IMG/VR virus record: IMGVR_UViG_3300046535_001869
Span: 45,300 to 109,299 of that record
Length of the DNA stretch: 64,000 nt
Strand: one strand, 5' to 3'
Source of the DNA: a virus
The notes beneath the pieces were generated by a model. That model worked only from the letters and a program-made list of their open reading frames with translations. It had not been told where the DNA came from and did not search any database. Positions 44,683 to 59,614 of this stretch are shown here, in pieces. A program made the position numbers and the translations under genes. Each line of letters begins with the position of its first letter. Position 1 is the stretch's first letter.

Positions 44683-45417
44683 ATGGAGACAGCGACGCCC
44701 CTTTTAGACACCCTCCGCCGCGACGGCATCGCCCGCGTCTACCCGCCCCTCGGCGCCGGCCCGGCGGCCGAGCTCGCCGCGTACCTGCGCGCCGCGCCGT
44801 GCTACCCGGGCCACGTGCGCGTGTACGGCGACGGGGTCGCGCGGTCGTGGGATGTTACCTCGGAGATATGTGACGTCTGGTGCCATTCCTTGGAGACGAT
44901 CGTCCTGGCGCCCCATCTCTGGGACCTGGCGATTGGCCTCCTCCCGGCCGCCGCGCGGTACCTCGACGCCCCACCACGGCTCTATTCGATGAATGCCTTC
45001 TGGTCGCGCGCGTCCGCTACCGAGCCGATGCTTGACCTCCAGACCTGGCATCGCGACCGCGACGACGATAAGTTCCTCGCGCTGTTCGTCTACGGGACCG
45101 ACGTGCTATGCGAGGAGGACGGACCGCACCGGTTTATGATCGGGACCCACGACCCGAAGTGCGTGATGGCGAACTACGGACCTCCGGTCTTCGGCCCTGC
45201 CGGCACGACCTTTCTCGCCGACACGCGCGGCCTTCACATGGGGGTGAAACCAACGAGCCGCGAGCCACGCCTAATCGTCTGGGCGCGTTACGGCATCTCC
45301 GAGCGCCCGTGGGCCTACGGGCAGGATCAACTGGCGCCGGTCGCGGCAGCGCGACTCGGGGATCGCTATCCACCGGACGCGGCGACGCGGAAGATGGTGG
45401 AGCTCGTCGCGGCGTGA
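44683..45417 (+). CDS. PhyH-like 2-oxoglutarate/Fe(II) dioxygenase
   Basis: WHRD (HxD), LFVYGTDV..DGPH, GPAGT..DTRGLHMG, downstream Arg. Confidence 0.75.
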   Translation: METATPLLDTLRRDGIARVYPPLGAGPAAELAAYLRAAPCYPGHVRVYGDGVARSWDVTSEICDVWCHSLETIVLAPHLWDLAIGLLPAAARYLDAPPRLYSMNAFWSRASATEPMLDLQTWHRDRDDDKFLALFVYGTDVLCEEDGPHRFMIGTHDPKCVMANYGPPVFGPAGTTFLADTRGLHMGVKPTSREPRLIVWARYGISERPWAYGQDQLAPVAAARLGDRYPPDAATRKMVELVAA

Positions 45418-48122
45418 AGTCCGCCACCGTAACCCGACTCCCCGGGACCCGGCGCCAGCGCGCCGCGAAGGCAGCTCCGTCGATCTCGCAGCAGGCGGTC
45501 GATACCTCAGCCCAGCGGCGCCAGCGGCGCGTCGACCCGTTCGCGATGCCCCACCATCCGCCCGGCGTGATCCCCGCGGGCGAGGGTGGTTCGAAGATCG
45601 CCCAAGATTCCGCGATAGACGAGGCTTGGGTCTGGGCGCAGCAGTCGTTCATCAACAGCGCGGTCGCCGAGGGCACGACGTTCCTCGGCTACGCCGCGCT
45701 CTCGATCTTGGCCCAGCGCGCCGAGTACCGCGTCATCTCCGAGGAGATCGCCTCCGAGATGGTCCGCGAGTGGATAGAGCTGAAGGCGGTCGGAGACGAG
45801 GACAAGACCGAGCGGATCGCTCAGCTCAACGCTGAGATGGAGCGGCTCGATGTCCGCGCGGCGTTCGAGCGCGGCGGCGCGGTCTACGACGGACTCTTCG
45901 GCCGCGGCCACGTCTACCTGGATACAGGTGACTCGGACGATCGCGACGAGCTGAAGACCCCGATCGGCGACGGGTGGAACTTGATGAGCCGGTCGAAGAT
46001 TGGGCTCGAGGGCCACAATGGCAGGACTGAGACTAAAAAGATCCTCGCCCTGCGCCCGGTCGAACCCGTCTGGTGCTATCCGACGACGTACGATTCCAAC
46101 GACCCGCTGAAGCCAGACTGGTATTGCCCGACGACGTGGCACGTTATGGGGAAGGAGGTCCACGTCTCGCGCCTGCTGACGTTCATCGGTCGTGAGGTTC
46201 CTGACCTGTTGAAGCCCGCCTACTCCTTCGGCGGCCTCTCGATGTCCCAGATGGCCAAGCCGTACATCGACAACTGGCTGCGCACGCGCCAGTCGGTCAG
46301 CGACAAGGTGGCCTCGTTCAGCGTCCGCGGGATCAAGACCCCTGGCCTGGCGGCCTCGCTCAGCGCCGGGGGCGACCTAATCTACAAGCGCGCCGAGATC
46401 TTCAACAACATGGTCCAGAACTCCGGGCTGATGCTGCTCGACAGCACCAACGAGGAGTTTTTCGAGGTCGCGACGCCGCTCGGCGGGCTCCATGAGCTCC
46501 AAGCGCAAGCGCAGGAGCACATGGCTTCTGTGAGCAGAATACCTCTTGTCAAGCTCCTGGGCATCACCCCGTCCGGCCTGAACACCTCGACCGAGGGCGA
46601 GATCCGCTCGTTCTACGACTGGATTGCTAGCTTCCAGGAGCACCTGTTTCGCAAGAACCTCCACGCGGTCATCGGGTTCCTCATGCTCGGGCTGTGGGGA
46701 GAGGTGGACCACGGGATCAAGTTTGAGTTCAAATCCTTGTGGCAATTGGACGAGGCGGCCCAGGTCGCGGTTGAGAAGACCAAGACAGACATCGACGACG
46801 CGAATGTCGCGATGGGTTCGGTCAGTCCCGAGGAAGTTCGCAAACGGATCGCTCAGGATCCATCCTCGACCTATGCCGGCCTCGACCTCGACCCGGACGA
46901 GCTCCCCGAGCCGCCCGGCGGCGAGATGGAGATGGGCGAGCCAGGATCGGAACTGATGGGCCATAATGGCGGCCCAGAGCTGAACGACGAGGGTGAGGTT
47001 CGCTCCCCACCGTCGCCTGGTGCCCCAAAGGGCGCGATCCCCGGCGCACGCAACCCGCGTGATAACTCGCTGTCCGTTACCTCGCGCGCCGGCAACCTCG
47101 CCTCCCCGACCGGTGGGTTCGGCGGTGATTCTTTAGCTGAGGAGGTTCATGTCTATCTTGAGGCTGTAAACGACTCCCGTCACGCTAATGACAAGTGGAA
47201 TGAGAGCGACCATCCTCGAGGCAATCCCGAGAACTCCGGCGAATTTACCTCAGGAGGCGGTGGCGGTAAAACAAGTCATCTTCATCCATCAGAAGGCAGC
47301 GGAAAAGAACGCACCGCGGTTGGTGGTGGGGGCCTTCCAGAACATATCGTTAGTCTGGCGATACCCCCTGCATGGACTGACGTGAAATACAGTTCGGATC
47401 CAAAAGCCGACCTTCTGGCGGTTGGTCGTGATGCAAAAGGCCGCGAACAGCGAATATACTCGGATGCATACCACGCGGCCCAGGCTGAGGCTAAGTTTCG
47501 ACGAATCTCCGAACTGAGTGACAAGTTCAAAGATATCAAAGCGCAGAACGAGGAGCTGCGGAAATCGCCCGATAAACGTGTCCGTGATTCTGCTGACTGC
47601 ACAGCCCTAATCATGTCGATGGGTATCCGTCCTGGCGGGGAATCGGATACTGGCGCCGATAAGTACGCTTATGGTGCGACGACGCTCAAAGGCGAGCACG
47701 TGGTTACCGAATCTGATGGTTCGGTGCGCTTGAAATTTGTTGGCAAGAAGGGCGTTGATCTCGATCTACCGGTCGAGGATCGAGGTCTCGCGCATATGCT
47801 GGTATCCCGGGCACGCAGGGCCGGCGCGAGTGGGCAGATCTTCCCCAGTACGAGCGCCGGTGCACTCCTTGGGCATGTTCACACGTTGGACGGTGGTGGG
47901 TTCAAAACAAAGGATTTTCGGACCCTGCATGGCACCAGAACAGCGATCAAAGAAGTTGCCCGCCAACCGGTACCGAGGTCGGCCTCGGCCTATAAGAAAG
48001 CCGTGCGATCAGTCGCGGCAGCGGTTGCAAGAACATTAGGCAATACCCCGACAGTCGCGCTACAATCATACATCAACCCCGTTGTTTTTGCCCGATGGAG
48101 ATTGGCAAGTGGCGCAGCATGA
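45414..48122 (+). CDS. Portal protein (DUF1073-like) fused to C-terminal DNA topoisomerase IB
   Basis: Portal: FLGYAALS, VHVSRL, YSFGGLS, IPLVKLLGITPSGLN. TopIB: IPPAW, GRDAKGR, GIRPG, FVGKKG, KDFRT, LGNTPTVALQSYI. GTG start overlaps the upstream stop. Confidence 0.9.
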   Translation: MKSATVTRLPGTRRQRAAKAAPSISQQAVDTSAQRRQRRVDPFAMPHHPPGVIPAGEGGSKIAQDSAIDEAWVWAQQSFINSAVAEGTTFLGYAALSILAQRAEYRVISEEIASEMVREWIELKAVGDEDKTERIAQLNAEMERLDVRAAFERGGAVYDGLFGRGHVYLDTGDSDDRDELKTPIGDGWNLMSRSKIGLEGHNGRTETKKILALRPVEPVWCYPTTYDSNDPLKPDWYCPTTWHVMGKEVHVSRLLTFIGREVPDLLKPAYSFGGLSMSQMAKPYIDNWLRTRQSVSDKVASFSVRGIKTPGLAASLSAGGDLIYKRAEIFNNMVQNSGLMLLDSTNEEFFEVATPLGGLHELQAQAQEHMASVSRIPLVKLLGITPSGLNTSTEGEIRSFYDWIASFQEHLFRKNLHAVIGFLMLGLWGEVDHGIKFEFKSLWQLDEAAQVAVEKTKTDIDDANVAMGSVSPEEVRKRIAQDPSSTYAGLDLDPDELPEPPGGEMEMGEPGSELMGHNGGPELNDEGEVRSPPSPGAPKGAIPGARNPRDNSLSVTSRAGNLASPTGGFGGDSLAEEVHVYLEAVNDSRHANDKWNESDHPRGNPENSGEFTSGGGGGKTSHLHPSEGSGKERTAVGGGGLPEHIVSLAIPPAWTDVKYSSDPKADLLAVGRDAKGREQRIYSDAYHAAQAEAKFRRISELSDKFKDIKAQNEELRKSPDKRVRDSADCTALIMSMGIRPGGESDTGADKYAYGATTLKGEHVVTESDGSVRLKFVGKKGVDLDLPVEDRGLAHMLVSRARRAGASGQIFPSTSAGALLGHVHTLDGGGFKTKDFRTLHGTRTAIKEVARQPVPRSASAYKKAVRSVAAAVARTLGNTPTVALQSYINPVVFARWRLASGAA

Positions 48123-52414: not shown

Positions 52415-52750
52415 ATGGCACAGCTCACCACTCGCCAGATGGTTCACGCCACCCTCGCAGTCACCAAGGCCGATGGCTCGGCCGGTCAGGTTGAGGCCGG
52501 CTCGGTCGTCTGGGCCTCCTCGGACGAGACCGTGGTTCTCGCTGCGCCGAGTGCCGACGGAATGGAGGCGGACATCAGCTCCGTTGCACCGGGCGGTCCG
52601 GCCCGCTTCACGGTGACGGCGGACGCCGACCTCGGCGCCGGGGTGGTGAACATCATCGGCGTCTCGGAGGACATCCTCGTGACGGCCGACCCCCGCGACC
52701 AGGCCTCGATCATCAATATCACGCTCGGGGCGCCGACCGATAAACCGTAA
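52415..52750 (+). CDS. Ig-like (BIG-type) protein with LGxPTDK tail
   Basis: VVWASSDETV, FTVTADADLG; ...ASIINITLGAPTDKP. Confidence 0.75.
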   Translation: MAQLTTRQMVHATLAVTKADGSAGQVEAGSVVWASSDETVVLAAPSADGMEADISSVAPGGPARFTVTADADLGAGVVNIIGVSEDILVTADPRDQASIINITLGAPTDKP

Positions 52751-53550
52751 TGCCCCGCGCCAGGACGATCGCCCCGGTCCGCCCGTCCGCGGCGATCGAG
52801 GCGCTGTACCGACGTCGGCTCGATGCGCTTCTCGACGAGATGCACCGGAGCCTGGTCTATTGGATCAGTGCCAACTACCGGGCGAACGAACCGGAGATCG
52901 CGAAGCTGGCGACGGATGACAGCCCGGCAGCCAACCTCCGTTCTGCCTTCCGGCGCTTGGCACGTCGGTGGACTAGCCGGTTCGATGATCTTGCCGCAGA
53001 CCTCGCGAAGTATTTTGCGACCCAAACGGCCCAAAGAAGTACCTCGGCGCTCCAGTCGATGCTGAAGAAGGGCGGGATGACCGTTCGGTTCAGGATGTCC
53101 CGGCCCGTCAACGACATCGTCAGCGCAGCTGTCGGAGAGAACGTCTCGTTGATCAAGAGCATCGCCCAGCAGCACCTGACCGCGGTTGAGGGGCACGTGA
53201 TGCGCTCAGTCCAGACTGGGCGCGACCTGGGCACGCTGGCTAAGGAGCTCCAGGACCAGTTTGGGGTGACGAAACGTCGCGCGGCCCTGATCAGTCGTGA
53301 CCAGAACAACAAAATGACTGCGGTCGTTACTCGCGCGCGGTTCGTCGAGCTCGGCGTTCAGGAGTGTCAGTGGGTCCACTCGTCGGGCGGAAAGGTTCCT
53401 AGACCATCGCACGTCAAGGCGGGGAAGGAAAAGACGAAATTTGATCCAAAAATCGGATGGTTCGATCCAGCAATTGAAAAATACATTTGGCCAGGGACAG
53501 AAATAAATTGCAGATGTGTAAGTCGACCAGTTATTCCTGGTTTTTCTTAA
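52750..53550 (+). CDS. MuF/SPP1-gp7-like minor head protein
   Basis: ENVSLIKSI, RAALISRDQNNK, WVHS...RPSH, PGTEINCRC. Confidence 0.9.
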   Translation: MPRARTIAPVRPSAAIEALYRRRLDALLDEMHRSLVYWISANYRANEPEIAKLATDDSPAANLRSAFRRLARRWTSRFDDLAADLAKYFATQTAQRSTSALQSMLKKGGMTVRFRMSRPVNDIVSAAVGENVSLIKSIAQQHLTAVEGHVMRSVQTGRDLGTLAKELQDQFGVTKRRAALISRDQNNKMTAVVTRARFVELGVQECQWVHSSGGKVPRPSHVKAGKEKTKFDPKIGWFDPAIEKYIWPGTEINCRCVSRPVIPGFS

Positions 53551-54404
53551 CTCTTCCATAAGTCCAACCTTCTGGTATTACATCGTTAGACATTAGCTTT
53601 TTATTGCGTTTTCCATTATTAATCCATAGAAAACCTTTCTTAATATTACTATTGAATGGAACTCTTCCTAATTTCCAATTTTCTGGTACTGTTTCATTAA
53701 TATCGATACGATGATTTATTAACTAACTCAGTCGCCGATATATCTCGATTGATTATTCCGTTAGTAATTTTGATGATAGATCCGCGGGTAAGCCGGCTTT
53801 TAAGAGCGGATTTTCTCCTAGATTCAGGATTAGGCAAAGTTCTGATGATTAATCCTGCGTGTACTTTACTCCAATATTCTATTGATGCTTGAGAACAAGA
53901 TTCACGAGTCTTCGCAGAGTGGGTCCAACCATCGTCGTGTCGTTTTTCCCAAGATAATTTAACTGAGCTACTGGTCTTTTCTCGTTGCTCTTCAGTTGCT
54001 ACGTGACTCGCGCTGGCTTCTGATATCTTTTTCTTAGATTCATCTGTATGCTTGTAGCCCAGAGTTATTTGATTACCGAGCATCGCTTGAACCATTGCTC
54101 TTCTAGCGACGGCATATTGCCAGGATGATATAATTCGTTTTCCATATTTGTTGTGGGTCATTAAGCGAAGCGCCCGGCACATTTTCTTTTGATTTTGGCC
54201 GCTAGTGCATTTTGTAAGTAACCAATGAGCTAGAAAATGTTTTCTAAATGATAATCTAACTACCTCTTTGTTATTTTTTCTTTTGAATGATCTAGGAATA
54301 GGATGATGTAGCTCGGTATCAGATCCTACGTCACTTTTTGAAAGTATTTGCACGTACCGACGATAGTACTTGTTATCGACGAGCATTTCTGGATCAAATC
54401 GCAT
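53531..54404 (-). pseudogene. HNH/NUMOD3 homing endonuclease-like gene with a frameshift in its C-terminal repeats
   Basis: ELHHPIPRS, HFLAHWLL, HTDESKKKIS; TNG..PEGW..GR repeats continue in another frame after ~53720. Confidence 0.65.
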
Positions 54405-54528
54405 CTTGCCATGCTCCGTGCCAGGGATCGACGCGGCAATTTCCCTGGCAAGAGAGAAGTTTCAGTGTTGCAACACCTAGCCGCGTCGGTACGAAGCATA
54501 CCTCACTTACCTTAAAAGGTAAACAACA

Positions 54529-54989: not shown

Positions 54990-57900
54990 GTGTTCGGGGT
55001 CGCGACGGCTCGGGATGTGTTCGAGGAGTCAGCTCATCCCAGAGGGCAGCCCGATAATCCTGGTCAGTTCGCTAAGAGTTCGGAGCACGTGGCCTATCAT
55101 AAAAAGATGGGTCAGTATCATAATTCAAATTCAAAGTCCGTAGAAGATAAGCACGGATTTGCGGCCGTATCCCACTTCGAGGCGGCCTCAGCCCATAGGA
55201 AGAACGCTCCGGAGGCGAAGCGTTTATCAGATAAGGCGAAGACGGCGACTGCCGCAACCGAGTACGGCGTCTCCCGCGAGCCGCAACAATCGCGTAAGAA
55301 GAACTTTATTCCGGAATCCGATGATGAGATTACTCCTGAGGTCCTGAGGAATGTCCTGTCCCAGCTTCCACCAGAGGCCAGGACCCCGGCTGGTGCTGAG
55401 AGGTTATTCAACAGCAAGATCGCCGAGCTTAACTCGCGCGGCGACCTAACATTTTACCATGAGAGCGATGGGGACCAAGTATCGTCGATGCGACAGAAGG
55501 GTCTCGTCGATAGGGACCATGGGATCTACGCAGCGATAAATGCGCCAAGCAATTTCATTACGTCTCCGGTCAAAACGGAAGTCCAGTTCAAGGTTCCCCC
55601 GAGGAATAGCCGGGACATCGTCCCAGACGAGAGCTTTAGTTGGTCCGAAAAAATATCGCCGCACCAGATACTGCTTTTAGCTCATCCGGATCTGAAGGGA
55701 GCCTATGTCAATGCTGGAGACGCGATCCCTTCGAGTCAGATCAAGAGTGTTCGTCTAATTCAAGGTAAGGCCCACGATCGCATGCCCTTGGCCATCGCCA
55801 CCGACCCTCCGGTCTCCGAGAAGCAGCGCCGCGCGATGTTCGCGGCGAAGGCCGGTCATTCGACCCTAGGAATCCCGCAGTCCGTAGGCGAAGAGTTCAC
55901 CTCTGCCGACCCCGGCGGCAAGCTCCCCGAGCACGCCAAGGCCAAGGACATGGCCCGCACCAAGTGGTCCGCGCTGAAGCGCCTGCTCCTGGAGTGGATC
56001 GACGAGGAGCGGGCCGAGCCGGAGCACGCGACGGACGCCGAGAAGCGCCCCAAGCCAGACGTTGGCTTCGAGCACCCGGCCAAGGGCACCGACCACTGCG
56101 CCGATTGCACTCACTTCGAGGCCCCGGATGCCTGTGAGCTCGTCGAGGGCCGTGTCCAACCGCGCGACTGGTGCAAGATGTTCCTGGCGAGCCAGACGCG
56201 ACCGGAGGCGGAGGATGAGGACCCCAGGGTCCGCGCCGCCGGCATCGCTTTCGTCACCCCCGAGGGCAAGACCCTGTTCCTCCGCCGCTCCGACGCGAGC
56301 GACCACGAGGGCGAGTGGTGCTTCCCCGGCGGAGTCATCGAGGCCGGCGAGACGCCGGAGGAGGCCGCGATCCGCGAGGCGAGCGAGGAGACGGGTTACA
56401 GCGCGAGGGAAGGCGCTGGGGGCATGAGACAGGCGCACAGGCACTTACACGACGGCGTCGAGTTCACGACGTTCTACCAGCCCGTGGCAGCGCCGTTCGA
56501 CCCGAATCTCAACGACGAGTCGACCGAGCACGCGTGGCATCCGATTGATGCCGCGCCGGACCCGATCCATCCTGGGGTGCGCGCGACGATCGACGAGATC
56601 TTAGCGAACCTGGATGACTCGGCCGAGAACGAGGCGGAGGATGCGGTTAAACACGACCCGAAGACGGGGCAGTTTACGTCGTCCAGTGGAACGTCCTACT
56701 CGACAAAGCCGAAGGAAAAAGGCGGCGGATCGACGGTCCACCATGAGTCCGGAGAGATCGGCAATACGAACTTCATCGCTCCGAACCCGAACTATCCCAA
56801 GGACAAGAGCGGATATACTGCCTGGAGCAGCCATACCAAGGGATATGTCGGTAGTCCGCGCTCTACCGCTGGAGCTAGTGCGGCCTCACGAACGATGGGG
56901 AGCCTGCTGGGTCGAAAGCCGACCATCAATCCTCGCTTGTTTACCTCGGAGCATCACGCCATTAAGGGTTTGATCGAGCATCACGAGGCTCATAAGGCCT
57001 CGGCTCAGGACACCCCGACTACCTCCGCCCTCCCAGACGCCGCGCGCCGCGCCAGGTTGCGCGGGCGCGGGGACCTGGCGCGGAGGATCGAGGCGGAGGA
57101 TGCTGAAATCAAGCGCGATGAGCATGGTCAGTTCGCCGCTAGCCAGGGCTACAACGAGGTTGCGCACAACCAGGAGGGACAACCCTGGACCTGGGCAAAG
57201 AAGATCGGGGCCGATCCATCCGGCACGACACACACGGTCAATATAAAACACGCCGGTGAGCCGAAGTCGTTCATCGCTACGCGCCTTTTTAAGCCATCCG
57301 GGACGATCTCTGGTGGTAGTGTCCTGGTCGGGAAGCACGCCTCCTTCAAGGAGGCCCACGAAGCAAGCCTAAAAGCAATCAACTCGCTGCCGCGGATGAA
57401 GGATGCGCCGCCGTTTGGTCAAGATGAGGTCAAACACGACCCGAAGACGGGGCAATTCACGTCAGGTGAGGGAGCTGCTGGCTTTGGTGATCTTCATAAG
57501 ACCTACGGAAAGGGTGGATATCTAGATTCCCATACTCTGGAAGAATCTCACCCTCATACCGTTGCTGAATTTTCTAAGGCGTTTGTTTCTCATGATCCTG
57601 GTTCCTATGAGCAACACCAGGAGTTGAATAAGACCAAGAAGAGGTTGTCGGCGGATCCTTCTCACTCCTCCGGCGCCGTGGAGGATACTCATAAGATGAT
57701 AGCCCAGCGTTTAAGGGCAAATCACGGCACGCCGGCACGTCCAGCAGCGGTGCAGCGAACGGCAGCGATGAGTCGTTATCTGAAGGATAAGGTCGGCGGC
57801 CGAGCCAAAGACTCCGGCATCGGCCCCAACGGCCACCTGACCGTCGGCGCGCAGACCGACCCGAACGGCGGGTTCGGCTGGGCCATCGGCGGGAAGGTCG

Positions 57901-58565
57901 GGACCGGGAAGCGGCAGATGCGGATGTCGTCAGCGGTGAAGTCTGGACGGGGGCTCGCCAACGTCGCTCAGGACATGGCCCTAGCTACTGACAAGCGGAC
58001 GTACGACAAGGACGGGCGCCTCCACGTTGACCGCGCTAACGTGACGAAGGCCTGCGTGAACCCCTACACCGGCGCCGAGATCAACGCAGTAATGAAGGGA
58101 ACTGACAACTGGAAGATGCTCGACCCGGATCGTCGCTATGCGCTTCTGCGTCATCCCGACGAGCTCCGCAAAGCGGTCGACACGTTTAACGGTCTCCCGA
58201 TCTTGTTCACTCACAAGCCAGCCTCGGCCCAGGACCATCCGCACGAGATTACGGTTGGTGCTACCGGGAACGATGCCTCGTGGGAACCTCCCTACGTTCG
58301 CAACAGCTTGAGCATCTGGCCCGCCTATGCCAGCGAGGCGATCGACGACGGTTCGCAGCGTCAGTTGTCCATGGGTTACGCCTATCGTGCAGAGATGACC
58401 CCAGGTGTTTACGAAGGCGAGAAATATGACGGCGTGATGCGCGACATCGTGGGCAACCATCTCGCGATGGTTCGCGAAGGTCGTGCAGGGGCGGACGTCG
58501 CGATCGACCGGGCGCTGATCTCCTGGCGCGGGATCGCTGCGGCCATCCGAGAGCTGAGGACCTAA
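54990..58565 (+). CDS. Polyprotein: tagged modules, ART-like, HiPIP-like and Nudix domains, C-terminal DUF2213 prohead protease
   Basis: FYHES..RQKGL; CADC..C..WC; GGVIEAGETPEEAAIREASEETG; RTYDKDGRLHV..VNPY.G.EI..LSMGY..GNHLAMVREGRAG. Confidence 0.85.
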   Translation: MFGVATARDVFEESAHPRGQPDNPGQFAKSSEHVAYHKKMGQYHNSNSKSVEDKHGFAAVSHFEAASAHRKNAPEAKRLSDKAKTATAATEYGVSREPQQSRKKNFIPESDDEITPEVLRNVLSQLPPEARTPAGAERLFNSKIAELNSRGDLTFYHESDGDQVSSMRQKGLVDRDHGIYAAINAPSNFITSPVKTEVQFKVPPRNSRDIVPDESFSWSEKISPHQILLLAHPDLKGAYVNAGDAIPSSQIKSVRLIQGKAHDRMPLAIATDPPVSEKQRRAMFAAKAGHSTLGIPQSVGEEFTSADPGGKLPEHAKAKDMARTKWSALKRLLLEWIDEERAEPEHATDAEKRPKPDVGFEHPAKGTDHCADCTHFEAPDACELVEGRVQPRDWCKMFLASQTRPEAEDEDPRVRAAGIAFVTPEGKTLFLRRSDASDHEGEWCFPGGVIEAGETPEEAAIREASEETGYSAREGAGGMRQAHRHLHDGVEFTTFYQPVAAPFDPNLNDESTEHAWHPIDAAPDPIHPGVRATIDEILANLDDSAENEAEDAVKHDPKTGQFTSSSGTSYSTKPKEKGGGSTVHHESGEIGNTNFIAPNPNYPKDKSGYTAWSSHTKGYVGSPRSTAGASAASRTMGSLLGRKPTINPRLFTSEHHAIKGLIEHHEAHKASAQDTPTTSALPDAARRARLRGRGDLARRIEAEDAEIKRDEHGQFAASQGYNEVAHNQEGQPWTWAKKIGADPSGTTHTVNIKHAGEPKSFIATRLFKPSGTISGGSVLVGKHASFKEAHEASLKAINSLPRMKDAPPFGQDEVKHDPKTGQFTSGEGAAGFGDLHKTYGKGGYLDSHTLEESHPHTVAEFSKAFVSHDPGSYEQHQELNKTKKRLSADPSHSSGAVEDTHKMIAQRLRANHGTPARPAAVQRTAAMSRYLKDKVGGRAKDSGIGPNGHLTVGAQTDPNGGFGWAIGGKVGTGKRQMRMSSAVKSGRGLANVAQDMALATDKRTYDKDGRLHVDRANVTKACVNPYTGAEINAVMKGTDNWKMLDPDRRYALLRHPDELRKAVDTFNGLPILFTHKPASAQDHPHEITVGATGNDASWEPPYVRNSLSIWPAYASEAIDDGSQRQLSMGYAYRAEMTPGVYEGEKYDGVMRDIVGNHLAMVREGRAGADVAIDRALISWRGIAAAIRELRT

Positions 58566-58567
58566 GA

Positions 58568-59614
58568 ATGCGACTCATCGACGCCTTAAAGAAGAGGTTT
58601 CAGACACCAGAGCAGGCTCTAGAGGCTCTGGGTTTGGACGCCGCGACGATCGCGCTCGACGCGGCTATACGACCAGCGCGCGACAACAAGGAGAAGGCCA
58701 CCATGACGATCCAGTCGAAGTGGTCCCCCACGGCGCTGGTCGCCATGGGGGCACTGCAGAATTATCTCAATCCCCGCCTCGCCCAGGACGCGGCGATCAA
58801 CCTCCGCCCGATCCTGAAGGACGTGACGGCCAAGAACTTCACCGCCCGGCGCCCGTACGTGACCAGCGCGATCCGCGCTGCGGTCTCGGGCAACTTGGCA
58901 CAAGATGCCGACATCGAGGACCTCCCCGAGATCCTCGATAATATCGAGGCGCTCGCCGGTGAGGCCAGCCAGGCCGTTGGCGGCGAGGCCGGCCCGGACG
59001 ACGGCAACCCGATGGCCGACCCGGTCGACGAGGATGCCGGTGGCGACCCCGATGACGCCGGTGCGGGCGACCCGGATGTAGCTGCCGGTGACCCGGACGC
59101 GATGCAGTCCGGCGAATCGGACGCTAACGAGATCGAGGACTTCCTCCGCGACAAGCTTGATCCGGCCGACCTCGATACCGTGTGCGCCATGATGAAGGCC
59201 GCCAAGGCCGGCGGCGCCGTCGACGAAGACAATGGAGCAGACCTCGAAGCAGGGAAACCACCAGCGATGGACAAGAAGGCGATGGACGCGGCCATCAAGA
59301 CCGCCGTCGAGGCGGCCGTGGCGCGCGTCGAGAAGAACCACAACGCGGTAGCCGAGGCCCAGCGGATGGTCCGGCCGTACGTCGGTGACCTCAGCGTGGC
59401 GTTCGACTCGGCCGAGGCTGTCTATCGGCACACGCTGACCGCCATGGGCGTCAACGTGAAGGACACGCACCCCGACGCGCTGCCCGCGATCCTCGCGGCC
59501 CAGCCGAAGCCGGGCGCGCGCCGGAGCAGCGAGGCCCGGATCGCCCACGACGAGGCGGCGGCGAAGGGCTTCTCGGAGCGCTTCCCGAGCGCCTCCCACA
59601 TCAGGACGATGTAA
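58568..59614 (+). CDS. Capsid scaffolding protein
   Basis: Acidic/Ala-rich; VRPYVG...FDSAEAVYR; lies between protease and decoration genes. Confidence 0.75.

Follow-up and report, generated by a model that had tools for sequence, protein, structure and literature searches.

What is a chain of about 1000 residues, holding some nine accessory modules, doing ahead of a phage prohead protease? The question is raised by P0001 (54990..58565, + strand), a single open reading frame (ORF) of 1191 aa with a TAA stop at 58563-58565, in the DNA of an uncultured soil phage (IMG/VR record IMGVR_UViG_3300046535_001869). The window analyzed here, 64,000 nucleotides in length, makes up the right-hand part of the record, which is complete at 109,299 bp and has direct terminal repeats. 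P0001 lies in a head module with the gene order portal, MuF, protease, scaffold, cement, capsid, and starts with a GTG at 54990 that has GGAGG 9 nt upstream and is immediately preceded by the TAG of a small upstream ORF. We propose, with a probability of roughly 0.6, that P0001 is a phage 'polyvalent' head-cargo polyprotein, which would be carried into the head by its own protease, cut at its joints and delivered with the DNA.

The protease domain and its relatives

The C-terminal domain of P0001 (residues 1001-1175; 57990..58514, +) is a DUF2213 prohead-protease domain, recognized by Pfam over residues 1003-1173 (E 2e-40, 138.9 bits vs a cut-off of 22) and matched by PHROG 2229, 'head maturation protease'. 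In an AlphaFold2 (AF2) model of residues 556-1191, built on a 39-row alignment, this domain has a predicted local distance difference test (pLDDT) score of 96-98, and VIA-align of the protease model finds T4 gp21 (5jbl) at Z 10.9, with a root-mean-square deviation of 2.9 Å over 130 residues, followed by the proteases of varicella-zoster virus (1vzv; Z 9.4) and human cytomegalovirus (Z 6.5), with unrelated rows at or below 5.6; herpesvirus assemblins and T4 gp21 are also the top rows in Foldseek. His1075, Ser1127 and His1157 are near-invariant among the 39 sequences and, as read from the sequence, the conserved His and Ser and a third residue, the putative catalytic set, occur in the expected order. 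An earlier note, made from the letters of this DNA alone, had placed a prohead protease at the end of the string, and the DUF2213 match, the gp21/assemblin fold and these three residues bear this out. Polyvalent proteins were defined by Iyer et al. (2017, PMC5512222), and assemblin-like peptidases are always C-terminal in them. P0001 combines at least two effector domains, a head-module context and a C-terminal assemblin-like peptidase, the marks of the class, and is very probably a real polyvalent protein with a functional-looking protease.

We compared this domain with its 80 closest viral-contig relatives. A scaffold is fused C-terminally to the protease in 75 of them, and possibly more than 150 residues precede the protease in 29; four lack a fused scaffold, as does P0001, and these carry 349-801 residues of N-terminal cargo (Nudix in most, LPD3 and a metalloprotease-like domain), three of the four on contigs of 95-115 kb. 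The scaffold of the window phage is a gene of its own (58568..59614, +; 348 aa), as the earlier note had it, with an ATG at 58568, 2 nt past the P0001 stop, in a different frame and with its own GAGG; the protein matches the C-terminal half of PHROG 2229. P0001 itself ends in an amphipathic helix (residues 1176-1191; 58515..58562, +), a possible capsid-docking tail that may dock the scaffold-less protease in the procapsid. This helix reads WRGIAAAIRELRT, and in MAFFT alignments it coincides with a helix close to the C-terminus of the scaffolds that P0004 and P0005 carry in fused form.

The modules upstream of the protease are shuffled among P0003-P0006, P0158 and P0159, and P0157, P0160, P0009 and P0017 are stand-alone proteins consisting of leader, tag and module; P0158 has a protease 86% identical to that of P0001 and a quite different N-terminal part. 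A Nudix domain is present in the head module at 24 of the 80 related loci. These comparisons support the view that the modules are self-contained, interchangeable units and that the fold to which they are joined is a genuine prohead protease. Outside P0001, its domain families are seen only on proteins anchored in the head (portal, MuF and protease fusions), and a role as capsid cargo fits this confinement. The G+C content at third codon positions (GC3) changes along the gene, from ~0.6 (residues 1-280) to 0.82-0.95 (281-560), 0.33-0.80 (561-920) and 0.7-0.85 (921-1191), a mosaic that suggests differing histories of the modules. At one related locus (L070:3525-6314; IMG/VR 2547132293_000002) a single ORF encodes the C-terminal half of a portal, a tag, LPD3, the DUF2213 protease and a scaffold, with portal and protease sharing one reading frame, and PHROG 30637 (1119 positions) is apparently built on such fusions.

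Tags and candidate cut sites at the joints

A conserved tag, HPR..GxF or KHDPKTGQF, is found in four copies in P0001, each preceding a module. Tag 1 (residues 7-30; 55008..55079, +) reads ARD↓VFEESAHPRGQPDNPGQF, where the arrow marks the predicted cut, and aligns with the N-termini of stand-alone homologues; tag 2 (residues 549-564; 56634..56681, +) reads AED↓AVKHDPKTGQFTS, tag 3 (residues 702-718; 57093..57143, +) AED↓AEIKRDEHGQFAAS and tag 4 (residues 810-826; 57417..57467, +) GQD↓EVKHDPKTGQFTS. The profile of 60 distinct tags is A-x-D-A-E-[FW]-x-E-x-x-HPR-(2-7)-G-x-F, as in LLAMD↓AEWDESKHPR, and its first four positions are the motif that stands at the propeptide boundary of the capsid proteins. 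Across 875 kb of related loci we find 27 tags in 25 ORFs, all but one of which also match portal, MuF, protease, Nudix or topoisomerase IB. A complex prediction for the tag peptide (residues 1-60) and the protease domain gave a score of 0.00, which is uninformative about binding.

In all six frames of the window the tag occurs four times in P0001, once at a portal-topoisomerase junction and once in P0163, with one further off-frame chance hit. The portal is fused to a type IB topoisomerase (45108-48122, +), and the junction (about nt 47190-47250) carries AND↓KWNESDHPRGNPENSGEF, so that the topoisomerase may be released from the portal within the head. P0163 (48275-49747, +; 490 aa), which has a weak anthrax-lethal-factor-like metalloprotease match, bears its tag at residues 67-91 as LAMD↓EISWKEEEHPRAKNGEF, reading LAMD↓EISWKEEEHPR, so that the tag comes after a cut motif of exactly the capsid type; P0163 is likely a free-standing head cargo protein. 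At the DNA level the KHDPKTGQF tags 2 and 4 (56640-56680 and 57423-57463) form a 41-nt direct repeat, 90% identical and 783 nt apart, and GAGGCGGAGGATG (coding EAED) occurs three times; these repeats are possible recombination points for the gain or loss of modules.

The capsid proteins give this motif its meaning as a candidate cut site. A-x-D-[AS] is present in 63 of 63 distinct related capsid proteins (47 of them AMDA), against a chance expectation of 0.055 per window scanned, and sits exactly between the variable propeptide and the conserved N-arm. Edman sequencing of the capsid protein of KPP12, a PB1-like phage, gave the N-terminus SNFTAPVTTPS... (PMC3474789), which corresponds to residue 65 of the LBL3 homologue, directly after SAMD64 (cut AMD↓S), and residue 66 is the first in the maps of E217 and Pa193. 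In KPP12-type phages (LBL3, Pa193) the DUF2213-scaffold protein is the only annotated head protease. The major capsid protein of the window phage (60642..61739, +), whose gene is separated from that of the scaffold by the cement protein gene, is predicted to be cut at IAMD47↓A48. The capsid N-termini at five related loci (L018, L019, L024, L033 and L063) carry a tandem pair of A-x-D-A motifs spaced by a few residues, as in LACDAMPELAMDAQ.

Candidate sites in P0001 follow the borders of its modules, which are described below. They lie in the four tags (ARD9↓V, AED551↓A, AED704↓A and GQD812↓E, in order), at the junction of the ADP-ribosyltransferase (ART)-fold domain with the SEKQRR module (AHD263↓R), within that module (AKD320↓M), at its border with the HiPIP-like domain (ATD349↓A), between the HiPIP-like and Nudix domains (AED409↓E), between module I and a pre-protease element (AKD941↓S) and directly before the protease domain (AQD995↓M and ATD1001↓K). 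Four of the five strict A-x-D-[AS] sites are at module borders, and the separate scaffold has six [AG]-x-D-[AS] sites vs 0.9 expected. The pre-protease element (residues 939-995; 57804..57974, +) is conserved as AKD↓SG..GHLTVG..DPNGGFGWAIGGKVGTG..MRMS..VAQD↓M. We consider it probable that the protease cuts P0001 at its A-x-D joints.

The modules and the start of the protein

Tag 1 is followed by a His-rich segment (residues 31-104; 55080..55301, +), which the earlier note took for a helical module and which is instead predicted to be disordered (pLDDT 38-55, mostly below 50), and then by the ART-fold domain (residues 105-260; 55302..55769, +), in good agreement with the ART-like domain that had been placed at ~55450-55760. 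This domain belongs to no Pfam family, with no Pfam hit at E ≤ 10, and its AF2 model, built on a 21-row alignment, has pLDDT >90. Of the top 50 VIA rows, nearly all are proteins of the ART fold or of closely related structure, at middling Z values (Tpt1-like 9ld3, 6.9; TreX, 6.2; DarT1, 5.9), and the top Foldseek hits are Tpt1, pertussis S1 and DarT1, with diphtheria toxin also among the matches from VIA and Foldseek. H157, E158, S187, K195, D213 and G237 are invariant, and the family keeps its invariant polar residues across 21 sequences of 30-43% identity. Assigned from their positions in the model rather than by superposition, the NAD-binding position would be H157, in strand 1 (155-160), and an aromatic residue at 180 lies within strand 2 (180-183).

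The ART-fold family is sizeable, as a query with residues 1-410 returns 968 representatives at E ≤ 0.001, many matching the ART part alone, and the source databases give its members no name. When it was compared by hhalign with P0006, an ART-PolyVal protein, the alignment was confined to the tag, and searches of 50,697 deposited phage genome records and of genome contigs returned no match for the domain. Elsewhere the family adjoins MuF, portal, topoisomerase IB, Acb1 and an XkdF-type protease. The metagenomic protein P0036 (694 aa) joins an Acb1 anti-CBASS (cyclic-oligonucleotide-based antiphage signaling system) domain and this family to a C-terminal XkdF-type (Peptidase_S78_2) protease, which is likewise a layout of cargo before head protease, on a different protease family.

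The position of this domain bears on the alternative that survives best, which we nonetheless regard as unlikely: that tag and ART-fold domain (residues 1-264) are a separate cassette and the main protein starts at M265, the join being recent or incidental, or both starts being used. Relatives do start at residues equivalent to M265, and at least 15 representatives, together with P0006, L006 and L015, begin at residues equivalent to 265-273; one gene caller reports a protein of 927 aa, near residue 280 GC3 goes up abruptly from about 0.6 to 0.85, the ATG at 55782 has a weak AAGG 11 nt upstream, and the ART-fold family occurs near the protease or in the head module at none of the 80 related loci. 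No stop codon separates the two parts, however, so that ribosomes starting at 54990 must produce the fusion; that GTG has its good GGAGG, and the first 30 residues of P0001 align with the N-termini of stand-alone proteins made of leader, tag and ART-fold domain. With AHD263↓R at the junction, moreover, both readings converge after processing. We therefore read residues 1-264 as a tag-plus-ART cassette that was probably fused in frame onto an ancestral start, and both starts may serve.

The region from residue 265 to 349 (55782..56036, +) is the 'SEKQRRAMFAA..GIP..EF' module, with AKD320↓M inside it and ATD349↓A at its end. What had been described as short conserved-looking peptides is in fact a very widespread module, which forms the N-terminus of the protein in relatives; protein atlas searches with this module and with module H gave no usable match. 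The HiPIP-like domain (residues 350-405; 56037..56204, +) has four Cys, at 370, 373, 382 and 395, with HiPIP spacing and similarity to PioC (PDB 6xyv, E 2e-4 over 48 of 54 residues), and its matches to NCBIfam Iro (E 4e-8, 33 bits vs a cut-off of 100) and Pfam HIPIP (E 0.034, 14.8 bits vs a cut-off of 22) fall below the curated cut-offs; the earlier reading of a HiPIP-like domain stands at that level. The Nudix hydrolase domain (residues 410-545; 56217..56624, +) is recognized by Pfam NUDIX over residues 413-532 (E 4e-19, 69.3 bits vs a cut-off of 21.1) and, as had been noted, has a full Nudix box, Gx5Ex7REUxEExGU, complete at residues 448-470. It reaches no equivalog cut-off in NCBIfam, and its nearest matches are generic and MutT/RppH-like (3ees, MutT) rather than ADP-ribose pyrophosphatases. 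PADLOC matched this domain alone among the parts of P0001.

Three unknown modules follow, each behind a tag. Module G (residues 565-701; 56682..57092, +) is His-rich with two predicted helices, occurs also in P0005 and stands alone after leader and tag in P0160; module H (residues 719-809; 57144..57416, +) occurs in P0004, between protease and scaffold, and alone in the tagged protein P0157; module I (residues 827-938; 57468..57803, +), which is also found in P0003, is predicted to be helical with moderate confidence. By homology these are the real, recurring units that the earlier note took them for, but they have no confident fold: AF2 gives low confidence with a few moderate helices for all three, on alignments of only 2-5 sequences that are uninformative about folding. 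The anti-defence roles suggested there for the three are conjectural. The Foldseek check also proposed there recognizes the ART and protease folds. We dropped a weak match between helices of module I and the scaffold hairpin of Pa193 (Z 3.8), as many other helical hairpins surround it.

Upstream of P0001, a short MuF gene (52750-53550) is directly followed by a homing endonuclease ORF (53697-54404, minus strand; PHROG 655, weak NUMOD3) in a low-GC island at 53450-54500 (29-44% vs ~62%). MuF ends at 266 aa, the profile of its PHROG family is 624 long, and its final codons are already within the low-GC DNA; insertion of the homing endonuclease may have removed a MuF cargo tail. We considered a scenario in which the homing endonuclease had cut a MuF-cargo gene in two, the 3' half of which now begins P0001, and rejected this because two small GC-rich ORFs intervene, P0001 has no match to the MuF family PHROG 324 and stand-alone homologues align with it from their N-termini to its own. 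The two small ORFs directly upstream of P0001 (54529-54801 and 54783-54989, +) overlap and are rich in CxxC pairs (zinc-ribbon-like); the second is in the same frame as P0001, and it is its TAG that abuts the protease GTG.

Proposed loading and release, and known systems

If P0001 is head cargo, the C-terminal protease, perhaps via its terminal helix, would bring the entire chain into the procapsid. Once active, it would process the capsid protein, the scaffold and also the string ahead of it in P0001, in each case at [A/G]-x-D↓ sites, with the string giving roughly nine pieces, several of which would start with the HPR/KHD..GxF tag. The released enzymes would remain in the head, pass into the cell along with the DNA and work there at an early stage; we put even odds on this delivery and early action. 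The activities themselves are the least certain part. The ART fold suggests modification that depends on nicotinamide adenine dinucleotide (NAD), and the Nudix domain could hydrolyze nucleotide signals, ADP-ribose derivatives or RNA 5' caps; that the two act on NAD/ADP-ribose chemistry is doubtful, and the idea of a pair that writes and erases ADP-ribose, put forward in the earlier note, loses ground with a Nudix domain that is MutT/RppH-like and short of every equivalog cut-off.

Several observations weigh against this account. Cleavage, packaging and ejection are steps that we infer from sequence and models, for this phage and for any cargo protein, and the DUF2213 protein is assigned as the KPP12 capsid-cutting enzyme by way of gene content. 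The strict A-x-D-[AS] motif is not enriched over the whole of P0001 (5 observed, 3 expected), so the cut-site argument rests on position and conservation and not on counts, and several module borders carry only relaxed variants of the motif. In the ART-fold domain, the catalytic Glu/Asp expected at strand 5 could not be placed, the invariant D213 being a candidate. The His-rich segment and the three unknown modules yield no confident fold and might be no more than linkers or filler. Later starts, at M265 (P0002, 927 aa) or at M40 (Atlas record), are chosen by two gene callers. Finally, the tag is far longer than a protease site requires and must have a further role; as it persists even where portal or MuF is the fusion partner and no address is required, it may serve retention, ejection or cassette recombination.

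Two other explanations for the chain have to be weighed. One is that the enzymes act late in the phage-producing cell, on nucleotide pools or RNA ends, with the fusion serving co-expression and nothing being injected. The position of P0001 in a late operon is consistent with this, and ejection of the modules is a step that we likewise infer; however, the same families recur on portal, on MuF and on two protease families, which is hard to explain by co-expression alone, and T4 Alt is a precedent for injected head cargo processed by a protease (PMC5512222), so that we regard late action as quite improbable. Least probable of all is that the N-terminal string is core- or scaffold-like filler, digested during maturation, whose enzymes have no role after injection: most relatives (75/80) fuse the protease to a scaffold that is presumably degraded, long stretches of P0001 are modelled as disordered and many A/G-x-D sites lie along it, some within folded domains, but the Nudix box is complete, the ART-fold family retains its invariant polar residues at the divergence given above, and the modules also turn up as tagged genes of their own and attached to portal or MuF, which argues for selection on the modules themselves.

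The reading of P0001 as a head-cargo polyprotein can be carried one step further, as a tentative proposal that we think has somewhat the lesser chance of being right. The unit '[A/G]-x-D↓ + (A-E)-[FW]-x-E-x-x-HPR..GxF' (or KHDPxxGQF) might be a portable code that loads capsid cargo and later releases it, shared by a large set of phages, mostly uncultured, whose proteases are of the DUF2213 type; any protein part behind the unit, on portal, MuF, protease or a free-standing gene, would be freed in the head and would keep the tag as an N-terminal label for retention or ejection. Head-enzyme loading and release for injection are known in detail mainly for T4, and P0001 would add a compact case in another phage group, in which vehicle, cut signal, tag and cargo list, the last including an unnamed ART-fold family and an iron-sulfur-like domain, can be read from the sequence. 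If this holds, the head cargo of metagenomic phages could be annotated by motif and cargo sets read from sequence alone, and, if the code is portable, foreign proteins could be loaded into the heads of such phages.

Part of this is already published, namely the polyvalent class with its assemblin-like peptidase, the fusion of Nudix to such a peptidase and the general inference of the earlier note. Fusions of Nudix to MuF, portal or a capsid-processing serine peptidase have been described and their packaging predicted (Iyer et al. 2022, PMC9503650), and it is a prediction of the same work that head-packaged ARTs and Nudix enzymes counter immunity based on NAD/ADP-ribose. In the open-access literature we found no paper on the tag, on the tag plus cut-site grammar or on DUF2213 as a cargo carrier, nor one that links the A-x-D cut motif to the Edman data or describes the unnamed ART-fold family or HiPIP-like head cargo; the text of PMC5512222 makes no mention of DUF2213, HiPIP or any linker or tag. 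Like the polyvalent proteins of Iyer et al. (2017), P0001 is encoded in the head module and holds many effector-type domains in one polypeptide; unlike theirs, its ART-fold domain is not of the ART-PolyVal family, as judged by Pfam and by the hhalign comparison.

Among cultured phages, gp26 of Burkholderia phage BcepB1A consists of Nudix, DUF2213 and a nested scaffold, whereas the scaffold of P0001 is a separate gene, and Bcep781, Bcep1, Bcep43 and BcepNY3 have a portal-Nudix fusion, whereas the Nudix domain of P0001 is accompanied by eight other modules. Gp24 of the Pbunavirus Pa193 and gp19 of LBL3 share the DUF2213 domain of P0001, and these phages its capsid protein family, with the capsid protein cut after A-M-D, but both proteins lack N-terminal cargo and carry the scaffold in cis; the Pa193 map shows only the scaffold helix-turn-helix of the protease-scaffold. 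In work by Duda, Oh and Hendrix from 2013, the C-terminal part of the HK97 gp4 protease is said to target the protease and fused passengers into proheads. The HK97 protease is likewise a vehicle for N-terminal fusions, but it belongs to a different protease family and its passengers were engineered. A further likeness is to Alt and the internal proteins of T4, head-packaged enzymes that include an ART and are injected with the DNA (PMC5512222). The N-terminal signal of T4 cargo, the capsid-targeting sequence, is removed by the gp21 protease, which has the same fold as that of P0001, but T4 encodes its cargo in separate genes and cuts at [LI]-x-E, whereas P0001 carries its cargo in cis, has A-x-D joints and would leave a long tag on the product. 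P0001 thus resembles the capsid-targeting sequence system of T4 in its working and is not a member of it.

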